A stretch of 64,000 bases of DNA from Bacillota bacterium (GCA_040755005.1 JBFMBV010000007.1:1181-65180), one strand, 5' to 3'. Shown: positions 50,177 through 60,417, counted from the stretch's first letter. Numbers and translations: made by a program. Notes: generated by a model from the letters alone, not told the origin.

Positions 50177-53100
50177 TCATGCAGTGGCCCATTCCGCGGA
50201 CAGTAGCGCCGCCTGCTCCAGCACCGTCGCCGTCGCCTTCTCTTGCTTGTCCGGCGGGTAGCCATACTTGCGCAGGATGCGCTTCACTAGCACGCGCAAC
50301 TGGGCGCGGACGTTCTCCCGTAGGGTCCAGTCGATCGTCACGTTCCTCCGTACCGTCTCGACCAGCTCGCGTGCGATCGTGCGGAGCGTGTCGTCGCCTA
50401 GTACCTTCACTGCGCTGTCGTTGGTCTCCAGGGCGTCGTAGAACGCCAACTCGTCTTCGGTGAGCCCCAACACCTCGCCGCGCGCCCGGGCCTCGCGCAT
50501 CTCCCTCGCCAGCGCGATCAGCTCCTCGATCACCTGCGCTGCCTCGATGGCCCGGTTCTGGTAGCGACGGATGGTCTGCTCCAGCATCTCGGCGAACGAT
50601 CTGGCCTGCACTACGTTCTTGCGGCGAAGGGTCGCCAGCTCTCCCTTGAGCAGCTTCTGCAGGAGTTCCACGGCCAGGTTCCGCTGCGGCATCCCGCGCA
50701 CGTCGGCCATAAACTCCTCCGACAGGATGGAGATGTCGGGCTTGTGCAGCCCCGCAGCGGCGAAGATGTCCAGGACCCCTTCCGGGGCGACGGCCCGGGA
50801 GATGATCTGGCGTACCGCGTGGTCCAACTCCGCCTCGGGGCGCGTCTCACCCGGCGCGCGCTTGGCGAGCACCGCCTGCACGGCCTGAAAGAACGCCACG
50901 TCGTCGCGGATGCGCAACGCCTCCGTGTGAGGCACGGCCAGCGCGAAGGCCTGCGAAAGCTCGCGCACCGCTTGGAGGCAACGGTCCTTGCCGTTCCCCT
51001 GTGAAAGGATGTGCTCCTGCGCCGCGGTCAGAAGCGCGAGGCGCTCGGCCGACGCGCCGGTCGCCCACTTCGCCCAGTCAAGGCCCTCCGTGGCGCCGGT
51101 CGGCGTGGTAATCGGCCCGAACAGGCCGCGGCAGACCTCGTGCTTTTCCAGCATCAGCGCCACCGCTTCCTCCTGGTCGAGCGCGGTGCGGCCAGTGCCG
51201 CCGCTTTCGGTGTAGGTGGCCAGCGCGGCCTTGAGCTCCTGCGCGAGACCCAGGTAGTCTACTACCAGGCCGCCGGGCTTGTCCTTGAACACGCGGTTGA
51301 CGCGCGCGATGGCCTGCATCAGCCCGTGCCCGCGCATGGGTTTGTCTACGTACATGGTGTGCAGGCTCGGCGCGTCAAAGCCCGTGAGCCACATGTCGCG
51401 CACCAGCACCAGGTTGAGCGGGTCGGCGGGACTGCGGAAGCGTTTGGCCAGCTTCTCGCGCCGAGGCTTGTTGCGGATGTGCGGTTGCCAGTCCGCGAGG
51501 TCGGAGGCCGAGCCAGTCATCACCACCTTCACCGCCCCCTGCGCGTCGTCTTCAGCAGCCCATGTCGGCCGCAGCTTCACCAACTCGCGATACAACTCCA
51601 CGCAGATGCGCCGACTCATGCAGACGACCATCGCCTTGCCGTCGATGGCCTCGAGCCGCTTCTCGAAGTGCTCCACGATGTCCCGCGCCACCAGTGCCAG
51701 CCGTTTCTCGGCGCCAACCACGGCCTCCAGCTGCGCCCACCTGGTCTTGAGCTTCTCCTTGCGCTCGACCTCCTCACCCTCGGTCGCTTCCTCGAAGTCG
51801 GGGTCGATCTTCGGCCGCTCGGCCTCGTCGAGCGCCAGCTTGGCAAGCCGGCTTTCGTAGTAGATCGGTACTGTCGCGCCGTCTTGGACAGAGCGCTGGA
51901 TGTCGTAGACGCTGATGTAGTCCCCGAACACCTGGCGCGTGTTGGCGTCGGCCAGTTCGATGGGCGTGCCGGTGAAGCCGATAAAAGAGGCGTGCGGCAG
52001 CGCGTCGCGCATGTGACCGGCGAAGCCGTCGGCGAAGTCGTACTGGCTGCGGTGCGCCTCATCGGCGATTACCACAATGTTGCGCCGATCTGAGAGCTTG
52101 GGGTGCCGGTCGCCTTTCTCTTCGGGGAAAAACTTGTGGATCGTGGTGAACACCACGCCGCCCCCCACCACCGAGAGCAGTTCGCGGAGGTGCGCGCGGC
52201 TCTCGGCCTGCACGGGGGGCTGGCGGAGCAGCTCCTGGCAGCGCGAGAACGTGCCGAAAAGCTGGTCGTCGAGGTCGATGCGGTCGGTGAGCACGACCAG
52301 CGTGGGGTTCGCCATCGCCGGCTCGCGGATGATGCGGCCCGCGTAGAACGCCATGGTCAGGCTCTTGCCTGAGCCCTGCGTGTGCCACACCACGCCCACG
52401 CGCCGGTCACCGGGCTTGCCGCCGGGTTTGTGCCCCGCCTCGTAGCGCCCGGCCTCGGCAACGCGGTCAACCCGGGCCAGCTCCGCCGCGCGGAGGGTCT
52501 CGCGCACCGCCACGTGAACCGCGTGGAATTGGTGGTAGCCGGCCATCTTCTTGTCGAGCTGGCCGCTGCCGTCGTCCTCGAAAACGATGAAATCGCGCAC
52601 CAAGTCGAGGAAGCGCCGCTTCTCAAATAGCCCCTCGATGACGACCTGTAACTGCGGCACCGTTTCGGGCGCGAGCATCTCGCCGCCGACGGTGCGCCAC
52701 GGCTTGAACCACTCCCGGCCGGCAGTGAGCGTCCCGACGCGGGCCTCGACGCCGTCGGAGACGACCAGCACCGCGTTCGGCGCAAACAGCGACGGAATCT
52801 CGGCCTTGTAGGTCTGAAGCTGCTGGAAGGCCGTCCAGATGGTCGCGTCTTCGTCCGCCGCGTTCTTGAGCTCGATCACCGCCAGCGGCAGGCCGTTGAC
52901 GAACAGCACCACGTCCGGGCGACGGCTGTGCTTGTTTTCGACCACCGCGAACTGGTTGACGGCGAGCCAATCGTTGTTGCCGGGATCGTCGAAGTCAAGC
53001 ACCTGCGCCTGCGCGCCGCGGATCGCACCGTCCGCCGCGCGATATTCCATGGTTACGCCGTCCACGAGGATAAGATGGAGCGCCCGGTTGCGCTGGATCA

Positions 53101-53350
53101 GGTCCGCCCCTTCGGGCCGCGTGAGCTTGCGGAAGGCGTCGTCCAGCGCTTCGGCCGGAAGGTGCGGGTTGAGGCGGGCGAGCGCATCTCGCAGGCGCTG
53201 GGTAAGCACCACCTCGCCGTAGTCGCGCCGCTCGGCCAAGAGCTGATCCGGCGCGATCTCCGGACCGTGCGCGATGCGCCAGCCCATGGCCTCCAGCCAG
53301 GCCAGCGCGGCTTGCTCGACGACGGATTCGGTGACCCCACGTTCGGTCAT
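50177..53350 (-). CDS. hsdR: Type I restriction endonuclease subunit R
   Basis: [59 protein letters not shown]. Confidence 0.96.
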
Positions 53351-55029
53351 GGTTTCCCCTTGCGGGACTTTGCCTCGGACGCGCTGAGGCCCGTCGCTCC
53401 CGTACCCTTCTTGTTCTTCGGTTTGCTCGCAGTTCCCGCGGATTCGCTCACAGGTGCGAACGCGACTTTGAAGCCCAACTCCTGTAGTAGCTTCGTATGC
53501 TGCATGAGGTTCAACTGACTGAAGAAAGGCAACGCATCCGCCTCCGTGCCGCTCTTCGTGATTACTGCATATACGACCTCCCACTCGCCTGGAGTGGGGC
53601 GAGTAGAATCATCGGGAATCACGCTCTGCCACGTCGCAGTCAGCTTTGCCCGTAAGTTGTTTCGTACGCTTCCGTCACCAAGAAACACTCGTGCCCCAAC
53701 GGTTCCTTGCGAGAAGAGATGACTTAGGGTTGAGGACCGCGACTTCCGTTTCACATGCACAAAACGATTACGGCGTCCGAGCAGGTCGCAGAACTCGATT
53801 TCTGTGGCCGCATCCAGTGGCTTGAATAACTCGCCATCCAAACAGAAATAGTCGCTCACGTGCGCCTCAGCTACACGTCCGTTGTAGTCGCCTTCCTTCT
53901 CCTCTGGACGTGCCGCCGGTAGTGTGCCAAACACAGGGACGTTCCGCACAAACTGCTTGACGGTCTGTGCAAAGCTGGTCTCCACCTGAAACCACTTGCC
54001 TTCAACCAGCACGTGCAGGCTGCCGTCCGTCTCGGTTTCCCAGACGATGCAAGAGAAAAGCGACCACTTATCCTGAAACTGTCCGGACTCGCTATGTCGC
54101 AACGAGACGCGATAGGACTTGATCTTTTCAATCGTCAGGGCAGTGACGTCATCGTTGGCAAGCTGGCTCAGATAGTCGTCGATGTCCAGGTCGTTGTACT
54201 CGTGCCTGCGCGTTCCGGTGATCTGAAAGCAATCGACGTTCTGCCAATCCAGCGGCTCCGGTGCGGCAAGATGGAGCCTCTCGGTCTGCTTGTTGCGAAT
54301 GGCTTCTATGAGTCTGTCGTTAAGCTTGTCCAACAGTCCTTGGTCTCGCACTTCCTGCAGGTTATCGATCCAAGCAAAGTTCGTCTTGTACGTGCTCTCT
54401 TGCGACTTTGCGAGAAGTTGCCTGCACTTATCTTCGAGATCGCGCGCTCTGATTGGAAGGTTTATCGTGACGGCATCGGCGCCAGTCACGCGCTTGGCGA
54501 AGCCCTGATCGGTCGGTTCGCCAGTGATCGCGCGGAGCATGTCCCTAGAAATATCGAGGCCAAACGGCGTCAGGTCTGCGCTTCGGCTTGCCTGCTTTCT
54601 CGTGGACATCGCGAACTCTTCGTAGGTTCGGATGTCCATGCTTCGGAGCTGCTTGTGATCGATCGTGTTTAGTGCCACCTTTAGTCCGAACCCAAGTTCG
54701 TAGCAAGCGGGCTTGAGGAGGTTGCGGCCGTAGCCGAAGGTGATCGCAAAGAGCCGCGCGGCAGCCCTAACGAATAGGACCGCTGCAACCGTGGTCCCCT
54801 TGATGTCCTTCGGACAATGTTCGAGGGCATCGTCGATGAACGAAATCCAAGCGGGCGTTCGACTCCGGGGCATTGCGTGCCAGAACTCACCTGTGAATCC
54901 CGCGTCGTTCTTGAGCTTGACGAGGCTTAAATTCTCAGGGTCTTGAAGCCCCGCCTCGCAGGATTTCACGGAGTCCTTGAGAAGCAGGATCGTGAGCTTG
55001 CGCGTCTTCTCTTTCGCCTCTCTTGCCAT
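53347..55029 (-). CDS. TIGR04141/DUF6119-like sporadically distributed protein (putative nuclease)
   Basis: [52 protein letters not shown]; lower GC; coupled to hsdS and hsdR. Confidence 0.75.
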
Positions 55030-56258
55030 CAGACAGCCCTCGCGATGAACTTCTCGGCATCCCTCACCCGCAACTTCCCAGAGATGAGTTTGGGGAGCAG
55101 CGCATCGCGCAGGGCGGCGAGGGTGCGGGATTCGCGGCGGCACTCAAGTAGCCGGTCTGCCAGAGGGCAGGCAAGTCGCTCGAAGGCGGCATTGATCGCT
55201 GCGGTGGGCATGACGATGGCCATTCCTAGGATGGCGCTTGGCTGCGCTCGCTGGTGGCTCTTCGATGTTCCAGTAACAAGCCCTTCGATGTCCTGCCGAA
55301 AGATAGGCGATCGCATGCCGCAGTACGCGTATGTCCGCCCATACCGTGAACGAGGCGCGAGAACAAGGAACTCCGTAGAGCACACAGCGCGATCACCCGG
55401 CTGGATGTCAACGAGCCATACGCGTTCGATCTCCGGATTGAGCTTGGAGAGCAAGACGACTCTTAGCGGAACTCGGAACTTCAGACTCTTTATGCTCGCG
55501 CCGTGCTCCAACGTCGGCCATTGGCCGTCGTCGAATGCGGGAATGCTGAAGTGTCGAAATACCGCGTCCGGAGAGTCAAGGGGATTCTCGCTGTCGCGCA
55601 AATGCTCGACCACATCGCCGAGCTTCCCCACCTCCCATCCCTCCGGGATCTCGCCGAGTTCGGAGTCGACGAGGCGTGCGGGGAAGAGGTCGGCGAGGGG
55701 CTTGGGGAGGCCGGGGTTACGGCCTTCGGCCTTAGCGCGGACGGGGGCGAAGTCCACGAACCACGACTTGAACAGCGCCCGCGCCATCTCCTCCAGCGTC
55801 TCGCTCATCCGCCGGTTCAACTCGATCTTGTCGTCCAGCGTTCCGAGGATGTGGGCGATGGCGCGCTGTTCCGCTGGCGGGGGAACGAGGACCGGCAGGT
55901 TGTAGAACGCTTCGCGGCTTGTGGAAGGAATCGCCGAGCCGCTGTCCATCCCGTTGATGTCTTGGGTCAGTAGTTCGTAGTAGGCCCAGCGAGCATCGAT
56001 CTCGCTCTTTGGCTCCAGGTAGAAGGCGGTGTCGATCACGAAAAAGGGTGCGGGAGAGTAATGAACGCCCCGATAGGCACCCTTCCGGCCAATGATGACG
56101 CTGGGGTGACAGCATAGTGCTTCGTCATACCAGCCTACGGGGCCATTTGTTCCAAAGACGCGAAACCGACCCTTGCTCTCCGCATAACCTCGCAGCGCCC
56201 GGCCGTACTCAAGGGTTGCGAGGTCTCCCCACGTCAGCTCACGCCACTCACCCGCCAT
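55029..56258 (-). CDS. hsdS: Type I restriction specificity subunit S
   Basis: Two TRDs with conserved PPPAEQRAIAHILGTLDDKIELN, ELGEIPEGW, LAALRDALLPKLISG. Confidence 0.95.
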   Translation of the reverse strand: MAGEWRELTWGDLATLEYGRALRGYAESKGRFRVFGTNGPVGWYDEALCCHPSVIIGRKGAYRGVHYSPAPFFVIDTAFYLEPKSEIDARWAYYELLTQDINGMDSGSAIPSTSREAFYNLPVLVPPPAEQRAIAHILGTLDDKIELNRRMSETLEEMARALFKSWFVDFAPVRAKAEGRNPGLPKPLADLFPARLVDSELGEIPEGWEVGKLGDVVEHLRDSENPLDSPDAVFRHFSIPAFDDGQWPTLEHGASIKSLKFRVPLRVVLLSKLNPEIERVWLVDIQPGDRAVCSTEFLVLAPRSRYGRTYAYCGMRSPIFRQDIEGLVTGTSKSHQRAQPSAILGMAIVMPTAAINAAFERLACPLADRLLECRRESRTLAALRDALLPKLISGKLRVRDAEKFIARAV

Positions 56259-56298
56259 ACCCAAGCTCCTTCGGGTTGGCGGCCTCGGCCCATTGCTT
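56248..56298 (-). repeat. Degenerate copy of the hsdM 3' tail (copy 3), supplying the hsdS RBS/start
   Basis: Reads KQWAEAANPKELGYGG*, compared with hsd[23 protein letters not shown]. Confidence 0.75.
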
Positions 56299-56318
56299 GG
56301 CAGTATTCTCGATGCCCC

Positions 56319-56663
56319 TCACGCCTTCCCCTCCAGTCGCAGCAGGAGTTGCCCGATGCGGGGCCTGAGCGCCATGGCGTCTCGGCTGGCGGCTTCCCAG
56401 ACAATCCCGGTATCGATGTCGAAGTATCCGTGCACCAGCACGTTGCGCATCCCAATGATCTTGGGCCATTCGATCTCCGGCGCCAGCGCACGCACCTCCT
56501 CGGGCAGCCCCCAGGCTGCCTCTCCGATGATTTGAAGGTTGCGGACGAACCAGCCTTGCAACAACTCGTCCTGCTCGAAGGCGGCCTTGCCGCGGTGAAG
56601 ATGGCGCTCGATGGCTGCGATGGCCTCGAGCATGTCACGCAACCGTTCCTTGGGGTCCCTCAT
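56319..56663 (-). CDS. HEPN (DUF86/HepT) ribonuclease toxin
   Basis: IIGEAA, IEWPKIIGMRNVLVHGY (R-x4-H-x-Y). Confidence 0.9.
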   Translation of the reverse strand: MRDPKERLRDMLEAIAAIERHLHRGKAAFEQDELLQGWFVRNLQIIGEAAWGLPEEVRALAPEIEWPKIIGMRNVLVHGYFDIDTGIVWEAASRDAMALRPRIGQLLLRLEGKA

Positions 56664-56950
56664 AACGGCACGGCACCCTGGAGCACTCGGTCGCGGATGC
56701 GCGCCTTGAGCCCTCGCTCGGTCATGACGTCTACGGGACGGCCAAGCAGACGCTCCAACTCGTACTGAAGACCTCCCAGGTCGAAGAGGCTGCGTCCCGG
56801 CTCCATCTCAACCAAGAAATCAACATCGCTCCGGGCGTCGGCTTCCCCGCGCGCGACGGAACCGAAGACCCGCGGGTTGCGCGCGCCGTAGGTTGCGCAA
56901 AGACCCAGGATTTCCTCGCGCTTCTCTTTCAACCGTTCGTCAATAGCCAT
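56660..56950 (-). CDS. Minimal nucleotidyltransferase (MNT/MntA) antitoxin
   Basis: VFGSVARGEA..SDVDFLV, SLFDL, LLGRPVDV. Confidence 0.9.
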   Translation of the reverse strand: MAIDERLKEKREEILGLCATYGARNPRVFGSVARGEADARSDVDFLVEMEPGRSLFDLGGLQYELERLLGRPVDVMTERGLKARIRDRVLQGAVPL

Positions 56951-57001
56951 ACCCCAGCTCCTTTAGGTTGGCGGCGATGGCGGCGTCGAGCCCGCGGCCT
57001 C
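56940..57001 (-). repeat. Degenerate copy of the hsdM 3' tail (copy 2), supplying the MNT RBS/start
   Basis: GAGGCCGCGGGCTCGACGCCGCCATCGCCGCCAACCTAAAGGAGCTGGGGTATGG = (EAA)LDAAIAANLKELGYGY*. Confidence 0.8.
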
Positions 57002-57113
57002 AGTAGATGTGTCTTTGGACACCGTCAATGCGACTTGCACGCGCGCAGACGGGAAGTGCGCGCGCGGTCTTATTTTAAGACCGCGGTCAAACGCAGTAAG
57101 ACTGCGGCTATAT

Positions 57114-58804
57114 TTATAAACGCGGGCCATACCATGCCCCTTTTCGCGTGCCGTGCAACACGATCTTCCCTTCCCGTGTGAACCTGGCCAGGAGTCGCCC
57201 CGCCTGACGGATGCCAAGTTGGCAAAGTTCGGCGGCCTCCGTCCGGGTAATTCGACCGTGTCTTTGCACGAATTGCAGGAGCATCTGCTCCTGCTGCAGC
57301 GGCTCGAAGCCGCGCTGGCGCACGTAGGCGGCCGGCTGCCCCAGGCGGCGATAGGTGGCGGCGGAGAGGTGCCAGGTTCGGCCCTTGCGCTCGCCACGCG
57401 GTTCGACGAGGCCGAGTTCGACCAACCGGTTCAGCATCGCACGTGCCTCGGCATCCGGCTTCTGGGTGAGGCGGGTGGCTTCTTCCGTCGTCAGCCGCCG
57501 ATCGTGCCAGAGCGCGTTCAGGATCAGGAGATCATCCAAGCCGAGGTGGCGCCCGGCTCGGGATTCCTCGGCGAGGAGACGAACGAACTCCAGATTGGCC
57601 TCCCCGCCGGGCAGAACCAGGACGACGCCGGCCTCGTTACTGCGGTCGTAGGAGGGTGCGGGCCGGCCGTTGCGGAGCTGCTCGTAGAAGATCGTGTCGA
57701 TGCCGCGCGCAGTGCGTTCGACGATCCCGGCGCGCTTGAAGGCGTCGGCCAGAAGAGGGTTGCGCGGGCGGGGTGCGGTGACGAAGAGATTGTCCAGCCG
57801 CACGCCTTCGGGAAAGCTGCCCGGGTTGGAGATCTCGAGGCGATCGGCGTGCCATTGGATATGGACGGCACCGAGGCGGGTGTAATCGCGATGGATCAGC
57901 GCGTTGGCCAGGGCCTCGCGGAACGCCGGCGGCGGATGGTCCGGCACGGCTACCCGCAGGAGCCCCACCAGGACCTCCTGTTCGCGGTTGCGGGCGGCAA
58001 AGCGTTGCTCGCACTCCTCCATGACGCGCAAGAGCGGCCAGCGGAAGAACTCGTTGACTTCTACCCTTTGCCCGGCCAGCACCTGAAAAGCGACCTCGTG
58101 CGTAGGCAGAAGTCGCCGGAGCGCGTGCTCCTTGCCGAAGAGAAGCAGGCCCAGGACCCGGACGCTCCGGACCTGGCCGTTGGCTTCCACGGCACCCAGC
58201 GCCTTGGCCAATTCCAGGTCCGGCAGGGTGAGCAATGAGGAATCGCCGCTACGGCGTTCGCGGATGCTGCGGCGGAATCGTTCGAACTCCAGAGGATCTA
58301 GGTCTTCCCATGTGGCATCCGGGAGGACTAACGCGGAGTAATCCTCGGCGCCACGGTCGGCCTGCCGGGCCTGCATTTCGTGGAAAACATCGGCAGGCAG
58401 CAGGGCTTGCCGTCGCCGCCGAGCGCCCGTCGCAGGTACTTGCCGGCCGTCGTGCCCACGGGGGCGGACATCGGCGGAACTTCGATCGCGATAACCTCCC
58501 TCCCCTGCAAGGGGACCAAGGCAATACGCGGGATCAACGACGGTCGGGTGCGATTGGCAATGAGGGCGGCAAGCCGCGGCGAATCGGTCCGGCCGGATTC
58601 ATGTCGTGGACGCGCGCCAGTCACACGGCCGTCGTCTTCCACGCCGACCAGCAGCCAGGCCGGTGAATTCGACGAACGATTCACCAGGCAAGCGATGGCC
58701 TCGACCAACTCGTCGTCCGACAGGGGCTTTTGTTCTTCCCCCTTGAACTCGACGTCGACCGATTCACCTACATCGATCAGGCCCTGAAGCCGCTCAGGCA
58801 TCAT
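57114..58804 (-). pseudogene. AlbA_2/Schlafen-like + HATPase_c_4 + HTH protein split by a frameshift near 58385
   Basis: N-ORF GESVDVEFK..LLVGVEDDG; C-ORF FREALANALIHRDY, LEISNPG, PRNPLLA, VERTARGI, tandem HTHs. Junction ATG TTTT CCACGAAATG needs one more T. Confidence 0.75.
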
Positions 58805-60417
58805 GGCTGCGTCTCCCAGAAGCCAAGTTCCTTCAGATTGGCTTCGATCGCGGCATCGAGCTTCGCGGCCTCGGCCTGCTGCTCGCGCAGCGCAGCGGTG
58901 AGCCGCTTCATCTTCTCCGCGAAGGGTTCACCGTCGTCCTCCTGGGCCTCGGCGCCGACGTAGCGGCCGGGCGTGAGCACATGACCGTGTTTGCGCACTT
59001 CCTCCAGCGTGGTGCTCTTGCAGAAGCCGGGAATGTCCTCATAGGTGGTTCGGCCGTCCACGGCCTCGGGGGGGACGTCCTTCTCGCCACGCCAGAGGTG
59101 ATAAGTGCCGGCGATGCGAGCGATGTCCGCATCGGTGAGTTCGCGATGCGTGCGGTCCACCATGCGGCCCATCTTGCGGGCGTCGATGAAGAGCACCTGC
59201 CCGCGCCGGTCGCGGAACTTCCCGTTCTTCCTGTCCCGCCCCAGAAACCACAGGCACGCCGGGATCTGTGTCGAGTAGAAGAGCTGCCCCGGCAACGCGA
59301 CCATGCAGTCCACGAGGTCAGCCTCGATCAGCTTCTTGCGAATCTCGCCCTCTCCCGACTGATTGGACGACATCGAGCCGTTGGCGAGCACGAATCCGGC
59401 CACGCCCGCGGGCGCGAGGTGGTGCACGATGTGCTGCACCCAGGCGAAGTTGGCGTTGCCGGTCGGCGGTACTCCGTACTGCCAGCGCTTGTCGCCGCGC
59501 AAGCGCTCGCCGCCCCAATCGGAGACGTTGAACGGGGGGTTGGCGAGGATGAAGTCGGCCCTGAGATCGGGGTGGCGGTCGTTGTGGAAGGTGTCGCCGT
59601 GAGCGATCTGGCCATCGATGCCGCGGATGGCAAGATTCATCTTGGCGAGCCGCCAGGTGGTGTAGTTCGACTCCTGGCCGTAGATGGAGATGTCCGCCTG
59701 CGCCTTGCCGCCGTTGCCGTTCCCGTTGGCATGCGCGCGGACAAACTCTACCGACTGCACGAACATGCCCGAGGATCCACAGCAGGGGTCGTACACGCGG
59801 CCGCGGTAAGGCTCCAGCATCTCGACCAGCAGCTTGACGACGCAACGCGGCGTGTAGAACTCGCCGCCCTTCTTGCCCTCAGCGTTGGCGAACTGCGAGA
59901 GGAAGTACTCGTATACGCGGCCGAGCACGTCCTTGGCGCGGCTCGCCTCGTCTCCGACCTTGATGTTGCTGACCAGGTCGATCAACTGGCCGAGGCGCAT
60001 CCTGTCGAGCGTGGGTCGGGCGTAGTCTTTAGGCAGTACGCCCTTGAGGGCCGGGTTGTCGCGCTCGATGCCAGCCATGGCGTCGTCGACGAGTTGGCCG
60101 ATGGTGTTCTGGCGGGCCTGGGCCTTGAGGTGCTGCCAGCGCGCGTCGGGTGGAACCCAGAAGATGGACAGTGCGCGGTACTCATCCGGATCCTCGGGGT
60201 CGGCGCCCTGGCTTTCCTCCGTGATGAGCTTCGCGTGCTGCTCCTCGAAGGCATCGGAGATGTACTTGAGGAAGACCAGGCCGAGGACTACGTGCTTGTA
60301 CTCGGCGGCGTCCATCGAACCGCGTAGGGCGTCGGCCATTTGCCACAGCTGGGACTCGTATCCGACGGTGGCGCCGTTCGTTTCTGGTGCCCTGGTGTGG
60401 TTCTTCCGCTTGGCCAT
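58801..60417 (-). CDS. hsdM: Type I N6-adenine DNA methyltransferase subunit M
   Basis: [42 protein letters not shown]. Confidence 0.97.

Follow-up and report, generated by a model that had tools for sequence, protein, structure and literature searches.

Decayed copies of the hsdM 3' end in a type I restriction-modification operon as probable scars of successive insertions

How genes come to lie between hsdM and hsdS of a type I restriction-modification (R-M) operon, and how the operon continues to function afterwards, is the question raised by a stretch of 64,000 nucleotides (nt) from a Bacillota bacterium (GCA_040755005.1, JBFMBV010000007.1:1181-65180), the whole of which we refer to as the window. 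Its minus strand carries an operon in the order hsdM, AlbA_2/HATPase_c_4, relic 2, MNT-HepT, relic 3, hsdS, DUF6119 and hsdR, where the relics are degenerate copies of the 3' tail of hsdM and the genes placed between hsdM and hsdS are called cargo. We consider it probable (roughly 0.7) that the relics were left by insertions or recombinations that struck the hsdM/hsdS overlap one after another, and that they have been kept as scars for the translation start of the next gene. An earlier note on this DNA, made from the sequence alone, had listed three copies of the tail, and a coordinate check found all of them at exactly those positions:

58801..58875, minus strand: 3' tail of the active hsdM (copy 1), alignable with the relics; its stop overlaps the ATG of the AlbA_2 gene as ATGA (58804/58801), as the note had described
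56940..57001, minus strand: relic 2 (copy 2), the putative 5'-truncated end of a displaced canonical hsdM, reading LDAAIAANLKELGYGY and the stop, with the Shine-Dalgarno (SD) sequence AAGGAG and the ATG of MNT
56248..56298, minus strand: relic 3 (copy 3), reading AEAA, then, after a loss of about 24 nt, NPKELGYGG and the stop, with SD AAGGAG, the hsdS ATG and the old 11-nt stop/start overlap

The hsdM tail as start signal and its copies in the window

A protein scan with HsdM, one genome per species, gave 80 loci from many phyla with 65-87% identity. The usual end of hsdM in this family is KLDAAIAANLKELGYGG followed by the stop (in a short form, LDAAIAANLKELGYGG and the stop), in which the K-E codons are the SD AAGGAG, situated 7 nt before the hsdS ATG, and this ATG falls within the Y-G codons. 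The exact 11-nt hsdM/hsdS overlap (ATGGCGGGTGA) is present in 23 of the 60 loci with a pattern-recognised hsdS, 22 of them with ATG; at these junctions hsdM ends with LGYG, G or E and the stop, and hsdS starts with MAGEW or similar. Since both the SD and the ATG of hsdS lie within hsdM, translation of hsdS depends on a sequence inside hsdM. Relics 2 and 3 match this canonical end, unlike the working hsdM of the window, the non-canonical end of which (LGFWETQP and the stop) overlaps AlbA_2. Copy 2 gives the reading listed above after a 1-nt deletion and has the MNT ATG (56950) inside it, in GGGTATGGC, while copy 3 reads AEAANPKELGYGG and the stop, with the hsdS ATG (56264) inside. In both copies AAGGAG is followed by a 7-nt spacer and ATG, which agrees with the earlier proposal that they provide the ribosome-binding site and start of the next gene.

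Copies this short could be a matter of chance resemblance, of convergent SD sequences or of a chimeric assembly at a repeat. Copy 3 is indeed short, and a core of AAGGAG followed by ATG has the look of any ribosome-binding site, but the likeness extends past the SD, to GCCGCCAAC upstream and to the spacer CTNGGGT. Copy 2 scores 33.3 bits against a profile of the 22-residue hsdM tail, while the best control among approximately 1.7 million residues has 10.4. Copies 2 and 3 are identical at 27/30 nt, and a second match with no more than 3 mismatches never arose in 100 dinucleotide shuffles of the window, thus the similarity is significant against shuffled controls. Copy 3 also stands at the same position as longer relics elsewhere. 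As for assembly, the read evidence consisted of assembled contigs of four public runs from two studies, from which rare variants drop out; a 3189-nt contig from another run and a related strain spans 56244-58891 continuously, with 70 differences, which indicates that the array is not an assembly artefact. We find an accidental origin of the copies hardly credible.

The suggestion that the copies come from different hsdM alleles is borne out by their identities: copy 2 agrees with its own hsdM tail at 31/42 positions and with the tail of locus L004 at 40/42, and copy 3 with its own at 21/33 and with those of L064, L006 and L004 at 29/33. The 1.89-Mb genome has a single strong type I hsdM and no second one as a source of the relic alleles (of its 2 N6_Mtase matches the second has only 21.9 bits), and no close hsdM was found in 40 genomes of the same class, the best being 74% identical. 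The best DNA match of relic 2 is the hsdM-MNT junction of L095 (92% over 63 nt), and all DNA matches to hsdM tails begin sharply at window position 57001. Relic 3 aligns with relics situated just after the HepT stop in L095, L097, L094 and L120. Those in L095 and L097 keep about 24 codons and are longer and better preserved than relic 3, and in relic 3 and the L094 relic about 24 nt are lost internally relative to them; judging from this alignment, relic 3 and the relics after HepT in L095, L097 and L094 are one scar. As relic 3 is common to distant relatives and relic 2 is less decayed, relic 3 is the old scar and relic 2 the younger one, and these relative ages fit new cargo entering next to hsdM.

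Relics and cargo in related loci

Eighty loci have a complete hsdM end, made up of the window and 79 related ones (L071 runs off its contig). In these, the tail profile, built without the window, was run over every stop-to-stop fragment on either strand, both upstream and downstream of hsdM. It reached at least 11 bits in 10 of these 80 loci, always downstream of hsdM and on the same strand: L059 (46.6 bits), L010 (42.9), L003 (41.7), L074 (40.5), L064 (38.1), L040 (37.8), L026 (37.6), the window (33.3), L078 (17.1) and L034 (11.1). The three control classes from the opposite strand and upstream, with 0.56-0.59 million residues each, had maxima of 10.4, 10.1 and 5.9 bits. One downstream match in L004 (10.1 bits) lies inside a long open reading frame (ORF) and was treated as noise. 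Further short relics stand in the 90 nt before hsdS in L006, L037 and L046, in the truncated contigs L062 and L082, and perhaps in L047. Where cargo is combined with an hsdS of the MAGEW/MAAEW type, six of the seven loci have a relic, L048 being the one without. Tail duplications flanking variable cargo, which the earlier note had expected in related type I loci, are thus found elsewhere, and the relic pattern is neither chance nor local but real and general for this hsdM family.

What is kept of a relic can be read from its decay. For 14 relics and for intact tails, identity to the consensus of 22 canonical junctions was, by position relative to the ATG:

-1 to -7 (spacer): relics 0.74, intact tails 0.79
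-8 to -13 (SD): relics 0.92, intact tails 0.77
-14 to -22: relics 0.79, intact tails 0.84
-23 to -40: relics 0.60, intact tails 0.71
-41 to -66: relics 0.47, intact tails 0.76
-67 to -90: relics 0.29, intact tails 0.73

Identity is best at the SD and falls upstream, which indicates that the relics are 5'-truncated and decaying, with the ribosome-binding site preserved. This profile argues for the portable translation start that the earlier note had proposed, as does the fact that in five metagenomic loci (L106, L134, L139, L145 and L148) the relic is still attached to MNT although there is no intact hsdM.

A Pfam search on 103 ORFs downstream of hsdM in the related loci found cargo of diverse families: Fic/DOC (L003, L007, L026, L034, L047, L048), the DUF1016/YhcG nuclease (L006, L045, L046, L064), AlbA_2 and/or HATPase_c_4 (L011, L013, L027, L078), ORF6N (L026, L040 twice, L082), MNT with HepT (L052) and, as single cases, Ymh (L037), HigB with an M78 peptidase (L020), AAA_21 (L023) and Abi_2 (L047), in addition to many NTase_sub_bind genes. 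Some cargo starts at the hsdS-type ATG itself, namely DUF1016 in L006, L046 and L064, Fic in L047 and L048, ORF6N in L026 and MNT in the window. Other cargo diverges just before this ATG, i.e. Fic in L003, L034 and L037 and AlbA_2 in the window, where hsdM ends with LGF and a few residues. L064 and L006 have the same cargo and the same relic boundary, which indicates that the scar was made once and then inherited. The stacking of cargo with a tail before each block, another claim of the earlier note, recurs in layouts like that of the window in L094, L122, L040 (ORF6N, relic, ORF6N) and L026 (Fic, relic, ORF6N).

The relics might also have a function of their own beyond SD and ATG, for example as an mRNA element tuning the levels of HsdS, MNT or HepT, or as a C-terminal extension restoring stop/start coupling on the cargo. 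In line with this, four cargo ORFs (L006:5318-6541, L037:11682-12563, L046:4278-5372 and L047:3736-4647; DUF1016, Ymh, DUF1016 and Abi_2, respectively) read through the relic as far as the former hsdM stop, which lies 10 nt beyond the hsdS ATG, and so recreate the ancestral 11-nt overlap, and the relics in L095 and L097 keep their 24 or so codons recognisable despite diverged MNT and HepT. However, neither window relic is in frame with its upstream cargo, conservation declines steadily upstream of the SD and no sigma-70-like promoter was found in 56150-57250. A further function seems to us very improbable. That cargo borrows the C-terminal helix of HsdM was likewise dropped, for the window because of the frame of the relics and for L003 because the long ORF with its end in the relic is an alternative frame over the real Fic gene.

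A scan of metagenomes with the window MNT gave 80 loci, 75 of them evaluable (at least 70 nt upstream of the MNT start), with a HepT match right after MNT in 56 of the 80. An hsdM tail stands at the MNT start in 38 of the 75, in exact register in 34, off by one base in one and offset in three (L094 by -22, L106 by -20, L148 by -2), the best opposite-strand control being 7.2 bits; the remaining 37 have no tail at the start. Scripted sorting of the 38 placed 13 behind a full-length hsdM and 13 in the class of relic or broken, the other 12 being cut where the contig starts. On manual re-sorting L094 and L122, with an hsdM tail 600-775 nt upstream and cargo between, were moved from cut to relic, and L102, L104, L109 and L117, with less than 300 nt upstream, were left unclassified, which gave a final 13 with full-length hsdM, 14 unclassifiable and 11 relic or broken. 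The last are laid out like the window, with hsdM, cargo, relic and MNT-HepT (L094, L122), have a degraded hsdM before MNT (L097-L099), keep the first 56 or so residues of hsdM and the tail (L128, L134, L139) or keep the tail only (L106, L145, L148). The 13 loci with MNT directly behind a full-length hsdM demonstrate that the predicted precursor state of the window layout exists. In L128:343-930, L134:5746-6288 and L139:5785-6288 MNT-HepT has hsdM scraps as leader, and no hsdS match lies within 12 kb at L134 and L139. MNT-HepT outside R-M loci can therefore still have a piece of hsdM as leader, which points to their source.

Origin of the relics

Each of 15 relics was compared in the same register with all 78 hsdM tails. 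Six have the resident hsdM as their nearest match (L010 59/60, L064 50/54, L074 61/66, L059 61/66, L078 41/57 and L006 29/33), and nine, both window relics included, are closer to tails of other loci (own against other tail: L003 48/60 and 59/60, L026 44/57 and 52/57, L040 36/66 and 55/66; further L034, L037, L046 and L047). Judged by these identities, relics like their own tail look like in-place duplications flanking an insert, and the best reading of relics of another allele, including both in the window, is a displaced older hsdM. Comparison of hsdM with its own downstream DNA (blastn) revealed flanking duplications in L010 (92 nt at 97%), L064 (53 nt) and L074 (58 nt). The cargo of L059 stands between two copies of hsdM with 98% identity over 1517 nt, of which the downstream one has an out-of-frame 3' end; this double hsdM may be an early or intermediate stage of relic formation. 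The flanked region (L059:7628-15575) holds an MNT-like gene and an ORF of 328 amino acids (aa), and the downstream copy runs into an NTase_sub_bind gene. The L003 relic differs from the L064 and L006 tails at 1/60 positions but from its own working tail at 12, approximately 7 of them synonymous (by eye from the alignment), so the two ends, working and relic, derive from different hsdM alleles. To judge from such alignments, relics of another allele cannot be explained by simple divergence in place.

We propose that each insertion into the hsdM/hsdS junction left behind, as its scar, the 3' end of an earlier hsdM copy, truncated on the 5' side. As the hsdS start signal lies inside hsdM, an inserted gene would persist only if a second copy of the tail stays before the downstream gene. 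The upstream copy would remain the end of the working hsdM, while the downstream one would turn non-coding, its SD and ATG held by selection and the rest decaying from the 5' side. In the window, an old event would have placed MNT-HepT behind hsdM and left relic 3 before hsdS, with the MNT start being a former hsdS-type ATG. Later, a different hsdM allele would have arrived together with AlbA_2 and a structured spacer, reducing the hsdM that formerly preceded MNT to relic 2. Most likely, related type I loci recombined in these events, either with in-place duplication, e.g. by single-crossover integration or unequal crossing-over, or with displacement of the resident hsdM followed by deletion.

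Several points weigh against this explanation. No pairs of near-identical empty and filled sites were found, the closest hsdM pairs being about 90% identical in DNA, and the process that creates the duplications is deduced from its products, i.e. from the relics, their alleles, their recurrence and the conservation centred on the SD, which were observed themselves; the translational role of the relics is likewise suggested by their conservation. No relic is present in 19-20 of the 29 loci with a gap of more than 100 nt, which indicates that a relic is not obligatory. In most of these an HEPN-like NTase_sub_bind gene overlaps hsdM and an MNT domain is fused to HsdS (MNT::HsdS), a different and apparently old layout. 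Relics of at least 9 bits after HepT were detected in only 5 of 59 evaluable loci (L095, L097, L098, L099 and L120), with hsdS directly after HepT in many other MNT loci. Finally, the tail at MNT and the tail after HepT agree at 40/42 positions in L120, 38/42 in L095 and 25/42 in L097, compared with about 28/42 between different loci. The likeness within L120 and L095 could reflect ongoing recombination between the copies, and the copies would then be more than passive scars; it could be due to gene conversion or to separate recent duplications.

The earlier note had gone further and regarded the conserved tail as a recombination anchor that lets cassettes stack up in the manner of an integron without an integrase and lets cargo be excised. 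The tails would then be working sites of an active shuttle: RecA-type recombination would excise circles of tail and cargo, or linear pieces would move with hsdM and relic as arms, and these would re-insert at any hsdM tail and stack cargo, the tail doubling as ribosome-binding site. The recurring stacks with a tail before each block (window, L094, L122, L040, L026) fit such a shuttle, as do the cargo families that begin exactly at the hsdS-type ATG (DUF1016/YhcG and Fic, and MNT in 34 loci). Flanking duplications as in L010, L064, L074 and L059 are the expected single-crossover product of a tail-bearing circle, the similar copies in L120 and L095 agree with gene conversion, and the family is spread over many phyla at 65-87% identity. 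However, no same-strain tail-to-tail deletion joint was present in the contigs of the four runs, from which rare events would escape, and the tail is not specially conserved as an anchor: the fraction of identical residues with the same codon is 0.51 in the tail and 0.56 in hsdM overall (76 genes). Relics begin at variable 5' points, the shortest having about 20 nt and the longest a whole hsdM copy (1.5 kb), which does not support a fixed recombination site, and the window copies, without a long identical run (27/30 nt at most), are now a poor substrate for homologous recombination. The common cargo and boundary of L064 and L006 fit inheritance of a single event with the locus, and selection alone explains the clustering of insertion points in the 11-nt overlap. 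The stacking and the portable start signal thus stand, whereas excision and a special anchor find no support in the data, and we think it unlikely that the tails serve as an active shuttle. It is to the same degree doubtful that the hsdM tail is a working element of a recombinase-free cassette system across phyla, by which recombination captures, stacks, converts and occasionally pops out cargo. If it were, each cassette would arrive with a ready ribosome-binding site and start codon, the series of relics would record the order of acquisition, and tail profiles would locate the boundaries of unknown defence genes.

Two candidate joints were rejected. The joint 56280->58946 (side 38, depth 3.8; hsdM to relic 3) was seen as a deletion in a single contig, the hsdM part of which differs at 8/63 letters, and it looks like the direct hsdM-hsdS junction of another organism; the joint 55865->58823 (side 27), also in a single contig with a divergent hsdM part, was attributed to another organism as well. 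In run X1 contigs break exactly at relic 2 (56948-56977), the depth being 28 towards MNT-HepT and 65 towards AlbA_2, which hints that in part of the community the AlbA_2 block is joined to something else. No clear mosaic breakpoint was found in the window hsdM by sliding-window identity against 12 relatives.

The window operon and its relation to known systems

The operon is tightly packed, with ATGA stop/start overlaps at hsdM/AlbA_2, hsdS/DUF6119 and DUF6119/hsdR, and consists of the following genes besides the tail copies:

58801..60417, minus strand: hsdM, 538 aa, methylase subunit of type I (Pfam N6_Mtase 3.4e-106, HsdM_N 2.5e-28)
57114..58804, minus strand: first cargo, AlbA_2 (Schlafen) with HATPase_c_4 and a winged helix-turn-helix (Pfam SLFN_AlbA_2 3.6e-13, HATPase_c_4 1.9e-17, HTH_24)
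57002..57113, minus strand: spacer of 112 nt, AT-richer, with three hairpins, ending exactly at the start of relic 2
56660..56950, minus strand: second cargo, MNT, minimal nucleotidyltransferase of 96 aa, antitoxin-type (Pfam NTP_transf_2 2.7e-13; PADLOC candidate PDC-S09 8.4e-39)
56319..56663, minus strand: second cargo, HepT-like HEPN RNase of 114 aa, toxin-type (Pfam HepT-like 1.1e-24), overlapping the MNT stop (56663/56660)
55029..56264, minus strand: hsdS, 411 aa (Pfam Methylase_S 1.2e-13), starting with MAGEW like the canonical direct junctions
53347..55032, minus strand: DUF6119 gene between hsdS and hsdR (Pfam DUF6119 3e-154), with ATGA overlaps at both ends
50177..53350, minus strand: hsdR, 1057 aa from the ATG at 53350 (HSDR_N 9.2e-48, SWI2_SNF2 1.4e-76, T1R_D3-like, T1RH-like_C 1.5e-130)

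By their domains HsdM, HsdS and HsdR stand together in one operon, as in a predicted type I R-M system, and the adjacent, overlapping NTP_transf_2 and HepT-like HEPN genes are a predicted toxin-antitoxin pair. The DUF6119 gene, for which PADLOC has no match, represents another kind of embedded cargo, one beside which no relic is visible. As a correction to the earlier note, the AlbA_2 gene consists of two ORFs in the window, 58804-58328 and 58376-57114, owing to a frameshift at four consecutive T of the minus strand (region 58328-58390). After 58383 an additional base stands in contigs from all four public runs, and with it, by frame arithmetic, AlbA_2 becomes a single frame of 563 codons; the frameshift is due either to misassembly of the window or to strain variation. 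The spacer folds as RNA with -52.3 kcal/mol (z = -3.2; none of 200 shuffles was equally stable); it has no second copy in the genome and no match in any fetched locus, nor did any of these loci contain DNA closely related to the AlbA_2 gene and spacer. Right at the border of relic 2, contigs differ by one inserted base (57003/57004). All four runs have contigs with an unlike sequence in place of the first target-recognition region of hsdS (joint 55871->56244), which means that related strains have a different specificity domain behind the same relic 3. Elsewhere, the hsdS ORFs of L009, L017, L032 and L041 have an N-terminal MNT/Polbeta domain, three of them with a DUF559 endonuclease-like domain between the recognition domains. 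In L041:12874-13518 a piece of the hsdM interior (53-75 nt, about 240-311 nt before the stop) occurs three times downstream of hsdM, within the hsdS with MNT and DUF559 domains, and a DDE transposase adjoins.

Translational coupling through overlapping stop and start codons is common in bacterial operons. The hsdS start fits it, with SD and ATG inside hsdM and an 11-nt overlap, as do the ATGA overlaps elsewhere in the operon; what sets these loci apart is that insertion of cargo duplicates the coupling sequence and takes it along. The cargo families (MNT-HepT, NTase_sub_bind, Fic, Ymh, DUF3644, AlbA_2, GmrSD-like and Abi) have been described as linked to R-M (PMC3710099), and embedded genes in type I clusters have been reported to defend against phage, namely TgvAB in Vibrio cholerae VPI-2 (PMC11411939). 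As in other embedded cases (PrrC in prrI, TgvAB, Campylobacter rlo, HEPN/MNT, Fic/DOC, Ymh, DUF3644), genes of defence or toxin type are situated here co-oriented inside the hsdM-hsdS-hsdR operon. The available portions of these accounts give the gene content and not the route of arrival, hsdM 3' ends that were duplicated or displaced, or an hsdM tail as start signal of the next gene. Genes embedded in type I operons are thus already known, but no description of the hsdM tail scars was found in searches of full-text literature, subscription journals being outside their coverage.

The closest analogue in logic are the arrays of orphan cdiA-CT/cdiI and rhs-CT/rhsI modules. According to the model for these, an incoming module recombines into a conserved gene and pushes its old 3' end downstream; repetition builds a co-oriented tandem array, and the displaced pieces keep homology to the upstream gene and could support later homologous recombination (PMC4927057). 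The modules of hsdM loci are likewise co-oriented, and before each of them stands a fragment with homology to the 3' part of hsdM. However, a variable toxin domain with an immunity gene is displaced there, while here it is a short non-coding stub of hsdM of about 20-70 nt, likely kept for a translation start and not for immunity, and the cargo consists of separate ORFs of unrelated families. With integrons the loci share one-directional promoterless arrays of cargo, a repeated element at each cassette boundary and the newest cargo probably nearest the platform gene, relic 2 being less decayed than relic 3. Unlike in integrons, the boundaries are not fixed and attC-like (relics have about 20 nt to 1.5 kb; no search aimed at attC was made), the repeat is the end of a coding gene that supplies the ribosome-binding site, and Pfam found no recombinase domain in the 8 operon proteins, the rest of the window not having been screened.

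Genes embedded in R-M operons are well known, but how they arrive and how the operon continues to function has not been described in the literature searched. The relics offer a rule for it: the hsdS start signal is situated within hsdM, and insertions that survive carry a copy of it. The order of insertions can be read from the state of decay of the relics, and boundaries of cargo can be marked by the tail profile (in 10 of the 80 loci, with no control match at the same score). Recombination between related R-M loci would thereby be a testable route for the spread of embedded defence genes.

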